From NCBI RefSeq assembly GCF_003334785.1, contig NZ_QOWV01000002.1: a stretch of 64,000 nt of DNA. One strand, given 5' to 3'. The notes beneath the pieces are model-generated. The model was not told the origin of the DNA. It made no database searches and saw only the letters and a list, made by a program, of their open reading frames with translations. Made by a program: the position numbers and the translations under genes. Below, in pieces: positions 26,887-51,870 of this stretch (position 1 is the first letter of the stretch; each line of letters starts with the position of its first letter). This stretch comes from Escherichia coli. Lineage in GTDB: Bacteria; Pseudomonadota; Gammaproteobacteria; Enterobacterales; Enterobacteriaceae.

Positions 26887-27333
26887 AGTAAGTACAAAAC
26901 CTATTCGTTGTATGACAAATGTCACAATTCGATCATGGATAAATCGGGGCAAAAATGCAATGTTGCAGCACTATTTATCTCATATTATTTGAGGGTAATA
27001 ACCTCACATTATCCCTGAATTAAAAGTGGTAATAATAAAACATTATTTAAGAAATATCGCATGTGGAGGCGCAATATTAAATATTGTCAACCTAAAGAAA
27101 CTCCTAAAAACCATATTGAATGACACTTAATATAATTCTTAAAAATAGCCAATTACCGAATTGTTATCTTGCCTGCTATTCCGTTAGCTGTAACACTTCC
27201 TCCTGCATTATTGGAAAGCCAATATTCAATTACCATAATGTCACCTTATATTCGGAAGTTAATTTCCGTAATAACCCTTTCTCATCAACGACTGCATGCT
27301 GAGAGGGTGTGAAAAATTAAACTAAATCAGTGT

Positions 27334-27372
27334 ATTGGTAGCTAAAAAGCCAGGGGCGGTAGCGTGTCTGGA
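27334..27372 (+). promoter_or_regulatory. JUMPstart element with ops (GGCGGTAGCGTG at 27355-27366), RfaH-dependent antitermination site
   Basis: agccaggggcggtagcgtg motif about 190 bp upstream of wza; the same motif recurs at 51845-51864. Confidence 0.8.
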
Positions 27373-27544
27373 TGCCTGAAAGACCAGTCTGAATTATTCT
27401 GTCAATAGCCTGCGGATGAAATCAATTTTTTTAGGACTGATGCCAGTTAAATTTTTATTCAATTAACTGCAAGGTAAATGTGCATGGCGACATTGCTATT
27501 AATAGTGCACAGGATAATTACTCTGCCAAAGTGATAAATAAACA

Positions 27545-28684
27545 ATGATGAAATCCAAAATGAAATTGATGCCATTATTGGTGTCAGTAACCTTGATAAG
27601 CGGTTGCACAGTACTTCCGGGCAGCAATATGTCGACGATGGGCAAAGACGTCATCAAACAGCAGGACGCTGATTTCGATCTCGACAAAATGGTGAATGTT
27701 TATCCGCTGACCCCGCGCCTGATTGACCAATTACGCCCACGCCCGAATGTAGCGCGCCCCAATATGACGCTGGAAAGTGAGATCGCGAATTACCAGTATC
27801 GCGTCGGGCCGGGGGACGTTCTTAATGTCACCGTCTGGGATCACCCGGAACTCACCACGCCAGCCGGTCAGTACCGCAGCTCCAGCGACACCGGCAACTG
27901 GGTACAGCCTGACGGCACTATGTTTTACCCGTATATCGGCAAGGTCCACGTAGTCGGGAAAACGCTCGCTGAAATCCGCAGTGATATTACCGGGCGCTTA
28001 GCGACGTACATCGCTGACCCGCAGGTGGACGTTAATATCGCCGCCTTCCGCTCACAAAAGGCCTATATCTCCGGTCAGGTGAATAAATCCGGTCAACAGG
28101 CGATCACCAACGTGCCACTGACTATTCTCGACGCCATCAACGCCGCAGGTGGCCTGACCGACACCGCTGACTGGCGCAACGTGGTGCTAACACACAATGG
28201 TCGTGAAGAGCGCATTTCTTTGCAGGCGCTGATGCAAAACGGCGACCTCAACCAGAATCGCCTGCTTTACCCCGGCGATATTCTCTACGTGCCACGTAAT
28301 GATGATCTGAAAGTATTTGTGATGGGTGAAGTGAAGAAACAGAGCACCCTGAAAATGGACTTTAGCGGCATGACCCTGACTGAAGCCCTGGGCAATGCTG
28401 AAGGCATCGACATGACCACCTCCAACGCCAGCGGCATCTTTGTCATTCGTCCGCTGAAAGGCGAGGGCGGGCGTAACGGCAAGATTGCCAATATCTACCA
28501 GCTGGATATGTCCGATGCCACGTCGCTGGTGATGGCGACAGAATTCCGCCTGCAACCTTATGACGTGGTGTATGTCACCACCGCCCCGGTTTCCCGCTGG
28601 AACCGTCTGATCAATCAGTTGCTGCCAACTATTAGCGGTGTCCGTTACATGACGGATACAGCCAGCGACATTCATAACTGGTAA
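27545..28684 (+). CDS. wza: Outer membrane polysaccharide export lipoprotein Wza
   Basis: 379 aa; lipoprotein signal (LISGC). Confidence 0.95.
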
Positions 28685-31299: not shown

Positions 31300-31360
31300 G
31301 ACGCCTGCATTCGCACCGCCCCGTAGGCCGGATAAGGCGTTCACGCCGCATCCGGCAAGC
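31300..31360. repeat. REP element
   Basis: gccggataaggcgttcacgccgcatccggc palindrome. Confidence 0.75.
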
Positions 31361-41935: not shown

Positions 41936-42021
41936 AATGCGAAACCGAGATGTAAATAACGACAAAAACAAAATTGGCCGTTTCGGTCAGGGCCAACTAT
42001 TGCCTGAAAAAGGGTAACGAC

Positions 42022-46334: not shown

Positions 46335-46550
46335 GTTCCGACAACGGTTGCCGGATGCGGCGTAAAACGCCTTATCCGTCCTACGGTTCTGTGCTCGGGA
46401 CCTGTAGGCCTGATAAGACGCGTCAGCGTCGCATCAGGCACTGAATGCCGGATGCGGCGTGAACGCCTTATCCGGCCTACGGTTCTGTGCTCGGGTCTTG
46501 TAGGCCTGATAAGACGCGTCAGCGTCGCATCAGGCAAAAAGCGGCAACGA
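46335..46550. repeat. Tandem REP/BIME cluster (two ~100-bp near-identical units)
   Basis: Unit gccggatgcggcgt..cgccttatccg..cctacggttctgtgctcggg..cttgtaggcctgataagacgcgtcagcgtcgcatcaggca appears twice. Confidence 0.85.
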
Positions 46551-51567: not shown

Positions 51568-51831
51568 TGAAAATCTGACCGAATGTAACGGTTGATAAGA
51601 AAATTATAACGGCAGTGAAGATTCGTGGCGAAAGTAATTTGCTGCGAATATTCCTGCCGTTGTTTTATATAAACAATCAGAATAACAACGAGTTAGCAAT
51701 AGGATTTTAGTCAAAGATTTCCAGGATTTTCCTTGTTTCCAGAGCGGATTGGTAAGACAATTAGCGTTTGAATTTTTCGGGTTTAGCGCGAGTGGGTAAC
51801 GCTCGTCACATCGTAGACATGCATGCAGTGC

Positions 51832-51870
51832 TCTGGTAGCTGTAAAGCCAGGGGCGGTAGCGTGCTGAAA
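51832..51870 (+). promoter_or_regulatory. JUMPstart element with ops (GGCGGTAGCGTG at 51853-51864) upstream of the O-antigen operon
   Basis: aagccaggggcggtagcgtg about 60 bp upstream of wzx. Confidence 0.8.

Follow-up and report, generated by a model that had tools for sequence, protein, structure and literature searches.

The colanic acid operon of E. coli runs for some 23 kb behind a long AT-rich leader, and this locus raises the question of whether that leader carries the site at which RNA polymerase acquires the NusG paralog RfaH. A first-pass annotation had placed a JUMPstart/ops antitermination element there, and we followed up this assignment in the 64-kb stretch of DNA that contains the locus (the window). 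The genes in the window are ordered mdtB to yegH, wza to wcaM, galF, the O6 O-antigen cluster and gnd, and a 681-bp query taken from the window matches E. coli VE-F10 at every position. Our analysis leaves little doubt that the element in the wza leader is the JUMPstart/ops of the colanic acid operon and a loading site for RfaH. The sequence, position and conservation of the element were observed here, and the RfaH occupancy of the site and its loss upon rfaH deletion come from published ChIP-seq data on E. coli CFT073.

A full-length JUMPstart with an exact ops site precedes wza

We scanned the window for the ops 12-mer, GGCGGTAGCGTG, and obtained an exact match on the plus strand at 27355–27366, which are the coordinates that the first-pass annotation had given for ops. 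When one mismatch is tolerated, the 64 kb contain two matches, this one and 51853–51864, both on the plus strand; shuffled sequences gave a mean of 0.35 matches and two or more in 5 of 100 shuffles. The first-pass annotation had proposed a JUMPstart scan as its own check, and the Rfam JUMPstart model RF01707 matches the leader along its full length (model positions 1–38) with 57.3 bits and E=1.6e-10, against a curated threshold of 35 bits. The 39-nt box drawn at first, 27334–27372, must be moved, however: it lies 6 nt too far downstream because RF01707 places the 39-nt element at 27328–27366.

27328–27366, plus strand: JUMPstart of the wza (colanic acid) leader, 39 nt; RF01707 57.3 bits, 5' half 83% conserved in 14 non-redundant leaders
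27355–27366, plus strand (non-template strand of wza): ops 12-mer GGCGGTAGCGTG, RfaH recruitment and pause site; exact match, the same as ops12 of PMC5995543
27545–50499, plus strand: wza-wcaM colanic acid operon, 20 genes, ~23 kb; from the RefSeq annotation of the identical strain VE-F10

An ops site is defined by GGCGGTAGnnTG, in which G5 and T6 are contacted by RfaH, C3 and G8 form the hairpin pair and T11 and G12 belong to the pause, and GGCGGTAGCGTG has each of these bases. The element lies upstream of, and in the same orientation as, a polysaccharide cluster: the end of ops is 178 nt from the ATG of wza (ORF 27545–28684, 379 aa), the first of the 20 co-oriented genes. Counted from the start of ops the distance to the ATG at 27545 is 190 nt, the approximate value given at first. 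RefSeq annotates no feature at this JUMPstart (the entry under the match reads 'none' in 4818 genomes).

Candidate promoter and operator sequences lie upstream of the element

The spacer between yegH and wza, described at first as an AT-rich region of about 660 bp, measures 658 bp and has a G+C content of 34.7%, compared to 49.6% for the whole window. Its upstream part contains the following features.

27048–27061, plus strand: RcsAB-box-like sequence TAAGAAATATCGCA, candidate activator site; fits 6 of the 6 strongly conserved positions of the consensus TaAGaatatTCctA
27085–27199, plus strand: three cross-genus blocks, likely promoter/operator region; phylogenetic footprint of 14 non-redundant leaders
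27085–27109, plus strand: block A, TTGTCAAC..TCCTAAAA
27127–27144, plus strand: block B, with a perfect TATAAT at 27131–27136 and no -35 hexamer
27168–27199, plus strand: block C, with TTGCCT, 17 nt and TGtAACACT (arrangement 27169–27197)

The RcsAB box consensus is quoted in PMC4325325, and the box-like sequence is kept as TTAGGAAATATCGCA in Salmonella and Citrobacter. In the 14 leaders column conservation reaches 83–85% in blocks A to C compared to 45–51% in the spacers and flanks, and a variable stretch of 130 nt (50% conserved) separates block C from the JUMPstart. The hexamers in these blocks are candidates for those used by the wza promoter. The single match of a sigma-70 consensus scan, TTGGAA-17-CATAAT at 27211–27239, was rejected as the promoter because it is located in a stretch that is not conserved across genera. 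The ops site is intergenic, and the candidate promoters, both the 27085–27199 blocks and the 27211–27239 match, are all upstream of it; whichever is used, the wza promoter would lie upstream of ops. With ops downstream of every candidate promoter and of the cross-genus blocks, the original assignment to the leader of the colanic acid operon stands. The position of the conserved promoter blocks, together with the RfaH ChIP signal described below, suggests that ops is transcribed.

A 49-aa 'hypothetical protein' at 27087–27236 on the minus strand is annotated in many RefSeq E. coli genomes, such as O157:H7 F8092B (WP_162829205.1). This ORF overlaps the conserved promoter/operator blocks on the opposite strand, is unannotated in the strain that is identical to the window, and can be regarded as a probable spurious gene prediction in AT-rich sequence.

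The element is kept at a fixed distance from wza across genera

To survey wza leaders, species-representative genomes were scanned with an exact 18-mer, GCCAGGGGCGGTAGCGTG, which includes ops, and at least 120 loci were retrieved. A close Wza homologue follows the element in at least 23 of them, from about 10 enterobacterial genera (Escherichia, Salmonella, Citrobacter, Enterobacter, Cedecea, Superficieibacter, Atlantibacter and others). The invariance of ops in this survey is by construction, because ops is part of the 18-mer used for retrieval, and leaders without ops are invisible to the survey; the 5' half of the JUMPstart, the position of the element and the flanking blocks are not fixed by the search pattern. 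The 5' half is 83% conserved in the 14 non-redundant leaders, and the distance from the end of ops to the wza ATG is 176–187 nt in 23 of 23 leaders among the matches listed. Rfam JUMPstart matches of 41–58 bits were obtained in 8 of the surveyed wza loci.

Within E. coli, 91 nt around the element are kept at 95% identity or more in 4818 of 5426 complete genomes; about 600 of the 5426 are without the wza-leader copy, and four sampled variants differ only outside ops. The same 18-mer was also found in several metagenome-assembled genomes (L060, L118, L026 and L062) that carry the labels Erysipelotrichia, Peptococcaceae, Opitutales and Spirochaetaceae. In L060 and L118 the JUMPstart is followed by an ORF of 361–374 aa at distances like those of enterobacterial O-antigen loci, and these genomes probably contain misbinned enterobacterial contigs.

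A second, co-oriented JUMPstart precedes the O6 O-antigen cluster

The other ops match in the window belongs to a second JUMPstart.

51826–51864, plus strand: second JUMPstart/ops (ops 51853–51864), between galF and the O6 O-antigen cluster; RF01707 60 bits

The gene that follows is annotated in RefSeq as an O6-family wzx flippase (ATG 51924), which begins 71 nt from the start and 59 nt from the end of this ops. A distance of 24,498 bp separates the two ops copies, both of which are on the plus strand, in agreement with the first-pass annotation, which had noticed a near-identical motif upstream of the O-antigen wzx, 24.5 kb away and in one orientation. The JUMPstart copies are identical at 34 of 39 positions, and outside the element the likeness ceases abruptly. 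They have in common a perfect direct repeat of 21 nt, AAAGCCAGGGGCGGTAGCGTG (27346–27366 and 51844–51864), which at a spacing of 24.5 kb could in principle be a substrate for deletion of the colanic acid cluster and galF.

In the species-representative scan, co-oriented JUMPstart pairs 24.0–25.3 kb apart on one contig were found in at least 10 Enterobacteriaceae species, and among the matches listed the pairs of Erwiniaceae are 17–21 kb apart. The pair is the standard enterobacterial layout and not a peculiarity of the strain. The layout is ancestral, with an exopolysaccharide cluster followed by galF and an O-antigen or capsule cluster.

RfaH has been localized to the same site in CFT073

The RfaH ChIP-seq study of Hustmyer et al. 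2022 (PMC9765446) was performed in E. coli CFT073, which is also an O6 strain. Its Dataset S2 places GGCGGTAGCGTG at -190 of wza and -71 of wzx, both distances being the same as in our window (PMC9765446). At wzx, transcription starts 67 nt upstream of ops and the RfaH signal is constitutive; the wza ops is listed as a UTR site with RfaH signal, in an entry without a transcription start site (PMC9765446). Wild-type CFT073 in rich medium keeps the wza locus silent, and RfaH gives no signal there. The signal at wza-wcaM appears once hns and stpA are deleted, when sigma-70 peaks are also seen upstream of wza, and both the wza and the wzx signals are lost in the rfaH deletion (PMC9765446). The proposal that this ops recruits RfaH is thus borne out by a ChIP signal at the corresponding CFT073 site, 190 nt before wza.

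Other work agrees with this picture. The wca operon is described as subject to the JUMPStart-RfaH mechanism, with Stout 1996 and Hobbs & Reeves 1994 as sources (PMC9976346), colanic acid production is counted among RfaH-regulated processes (PMC3101779), and another paper states that the genes downstream of wzc require RfaH, adding 'presumably' for cps (PMC3673037). The ops12 oligonucleotide used in structural work on RfaH is the same 12-mer, GGCGGTAGCGTG; in its non-template strand C3 pairs with G8 to give a hairpin, from which T6 is flipped into a pocket of RfaH (PMC5995543). RfaH target genes typically lack a Shine-Dalgarno sequence (PMC5995543), and when we looked for one before the ATG of wza and that of wzx it was absent at both. 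According to the cited literature, both E. coli K-12 and CFT073 encode RfaH; the rfaH gene is outside the 64-kb window.

The 8-mer GGCGGTAG occurs 8 times in the window, compared to 1.2 copies expected from shuffles. The six extra copies, at 2282, 7582, 8092, 15889, 26768 and 40153, are all within genes; four are on the non-template strand and one is in wcaI. We rejected them as RfaH sites: they are in coding regions, 0 of 6 have the full 12-mer, and such sites are unbound in CFT073. Of 42 ops-like sites in that genome RfaH was found at 8 only, which are those in leaders, and the coding-region sites were unbound (PMC9765446).

Conserved blocks between ops and wza

Conservation in the leader continues downstream of ops.

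27426–27544, plus strand: conserved leader blocks downstream of ops; 88% and 95% conserved in 14 leaders, against 67% between them
27426–27450, plus strand: block TTTTTAGGAcTGATGCCAGTTA with AGGA and a mini-ORF ATG; 88% conserved in 14 leaders
27440–27466, plus strand: mini-ORF of 8 codons, MPVKFLFN, with its ATG within the block at 27426–27450
27507–27544, plus strand: 38-nt block directly before the wza ATG, without a Shine-Dalgarno sequence; 95% conserved in 14 leaders

Among the matches listed, the ATG of the mini-ORF lies 70–73 nt after ops in 22 of 23 leaders. The mini-ORF has 8 codons in 14 of 21 distinct leader sequences and 12–33 codons in the rest, the longer forms being those of Cedecea, Superficieibacter and Atlantibacter. 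Its region overlaps an inverted repeat, TGCCAGTTAA..TTAACTGCA, which is missing from the Cedecea group and folds with z = 0.36. RNAalifold applied to 17 leaders gave 14 pairs, none with a compensatory change, and the single-sequence fold of 27328–27566 was no better than that of shuffled sequence (z = 0.19). With no covariation and with z values of 0.19 and 0.36, RNA structure was rejected as the cause of the conservation. CsrA binding at the conserved GGA blocks was likewise rejected, since the wza 5' UTR gave a negative result in a published gel-shift. We also rejected the idea that the mini-ORF is a 'rescue' made necessary by an exceptionally large separation of ops and wza; 178 nt is no outlier because 76 other JUMPstart loci among the matches listed have ops-to-first-gene distances of 20 to ~500 nt. 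We raise as a tentative and rather unlikely suggestion that the stretch between ops and wza is more than a spacer and serves as a platform for ribosome hand-over from RfaH-modified polymerase, or as a site for a regulator (small RNA or protein) of colanic acid export.

Other readings of the wza-leader element

Three other readings of the element were weighed. The copy before wza might be a conserved relic of minor function, with output set by RcsAB at initiation and RfaH adding little under natural conditions. The silent, RfaH-free locus of wild-type CFT073 in rich medium (PMC9765446) fits such a relic, as does the word 'presumably' attached to the need of cps for RfaH (PMC3673037). A relic fits poorly, however, with a position fixed at 176–187 nt before wza in about 10 genera and with the invariance of ops within E. 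coli. Moreover, RfaH is present as soon as the promoter is de-silenced (PMC9765446), colanic acid is described as RfaH-regulated (PMC3101779) and RfaH as required for the genes after wzc (PMC3673037), and we consider this reading very unlikely. To a reading in which the JUMPstart acts mainly as an RNA element, through a transcript hairpin UGGUA..GCCAG that does not depend on RfaH and acts, for instance, on RNA stability or processing, we would give an even smaller chance. Rfam does list the family among cis-regulatory RNAs, with a stem of 5 bp, and the 5' half of the element is conserved even though it is outside the 12-nt ops. In the 17 leaders, however, the columns of the stem do not covary, being invariant or changed on one side only, and the leader does not fold better than shuffled sequence (z = 0.19). 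Recognition of ops by RfaH is established to proceed via the non-template DNA (PMC5995543), and RfaH has been found at the wza ops by ChIP (PMC9765446).

The co-oriented pair might instead consist chiefly of short direct repeats that serve as recombination junctions for the swap or deletion of polysaccharide clusters and not as transcription signals. That the two copies share the perfect 21-nt run AAAGCCAGGGGCGGTAGCGTG and lose their likeness at the element borders would suit such junctions, and so would the roughly 600 E. coli genomes without the wza-leader copy. The spacing of about 24 kb and the orientation are nevertheless stable in at least 10 Enterobacteriaceae species, and therefore frequent deletion between the repeats is unlikely; the role in transcription has been directly shown by ChIP (PMC9765446). 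We see almost no prospect that recombination is the chief role of the pair, and a part in recombination is compatible with the element being a loading site for RfaH, the explanation that we favour.

Other features of the operon and the window

The gap between wzc and wcaA (about 92–97 nt) has a predicted fold of -30.5 kcal/mol (z = -1.8) and contains one feature of potential relevance to elongation.

31327–31356, plus strand: REP-type G+C-rich hairpin GCCGGATAAGGCGTTCACGCCGCATCCGGC in the wzc-wcaA gap, candidate internal attenuator; from sequence and fold

This hairpin sits where the need for RfaH reportedly begins, after wzc, and it is possibly an internal attenuator that is passed by RfaH-modified polymerase. 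Rahn and Whitfield are said to have found in 2003 that the K30 capsule is RfaH-dependent and has a stem-loop attenuator after wzc. Intrinsic-terminator-like sites inside the operon are not enriched over shuffles (14 versus 14.3; 11 versus 14.5).

Rfam searches returned further RNA matches in the window. Inside the colanic acid operon, the algC RNA motif RF02929 matches the cpsB-cpsG gap at 41968–42017 (plus strand, 78 bits), and naRNA4, a REP-derived, nucleoid-associated RNA, matches the wzxC-wcaK gap at 46407–46477 (minus strand, 79.7 bits). Two SIB antitoxin RNAs (RF00113) are found at 11037–11179 and 11366–11514 on the minus strand (142 and 149.5 bits, respectively), opposite ibs toxin genes between mdtA and yegL. 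The O6 cluster has its own manC/manB pair at ~59789–62681, and the window therefore holds two copies, ~19 kb apart; RefSeq names the second pair cpsB and 'colanic acid ... CpsG', and this product name is misleading.

Comparison with known systems

Neither the element nor its binding factor nor the mechanism is new, and RfaH binding at exactly this site has been published. Compared to the colanic acid JUMPstart/ops described for E. coli (Hobbs & Reeves 1994; Stout 1996; PMC9765446), ours is the same element with the same 12-mer, at -190 of wza and -71 of the O6 wzx. The CFT073 colanic acid locus has the same yegH and wza flanks; the strain alone differs, and nothing of substance does.

The GGCGGTAG core is common to the other RfaH operons, which are the rfb/wzx O-antigen, waaQ/rfaQ LPS core, hlyCABD, kps region 3 and F tra operons. 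Shared with them too are a non-template ops in the 5' leader before a long operon for an envelope or secreted product, dependence on RfaH, and first genes without a Shine-Dalgarno sequence. Unlike in these operons, the promoter of wza requires activation by RcsAB, and under laboratory conditions H-NS keeps it silent, so that the wza ops is 'cryptic' in the wild type (PMC9765446). The two copies in the window differ in the distance from the end of ops to the ATG, 178 nt at wza compared to 59 nt at wzx.

Group 1 capsule clusters (E. coli K30, Klebsiella cps) have the same 39-nt JUMPstart ahead of wza-wzb-wzc (PMC6128206). In group 1 capsule strains it lies between galF and wzi and serves the capsule, and wzi precedes wza (PMC6128206), whereas in our window a separate JUMPstart after yegH serves the colanic acid cluster and the copy that follows galF serves the O antigen. 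The N/nut and Q/qut systems of phage lambda likewise rely on a processive modification of RNA polymerase that is acquired close to the promoter and carried through a long operon. Lambda N uses an RNA site (nut) and lambda Q a promoter-proximal, sigma-dependent pause; RfaH, in contrast, reads a non-template DNA hairpin at an elongation pause and replaces NusG (PMC5995543).

Proposed mechanism and implications

In the mechanism that we propose, transcription would start within the AT-rich spacer from a promoter that Rcs activates and H-NS silences, at a point predicted to lie upstream of 27328, and RNA polymerase would pause at ops (27355–27366). Within the transcription bubble the non-template GGCGGTAGCGTG would form a small hairpin, with C3 paired to G8 and T6 flipped out, to be recognised by RfaH. 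RfaH would then be kept on the polymerase through the rest of the operon, with NusG excluded, and would suppress pausing, Rho/NusG-dependent termination and H-NS roadblocks over 23 kb, among them possibly the REP hairpin after wzc. The refolded KOW domain of RfaH would probably aid ribosome loading on wza, a step that the lack of a Shine-Dalgarno sequence before this gene fits.

For colanic acid production engineering, the element means that promoter replacements should retain the JUMPstart. The leader blocks downstream of ops offer a modest lead on how RfaH couples transcription and translation. For the annotation of the genome, the JUMPstart/ops of the wza leader explains how a 23-kb operon of 20 genes that is silenced by H-NS is transcribed to its full length after it has been switched on by Rcs.
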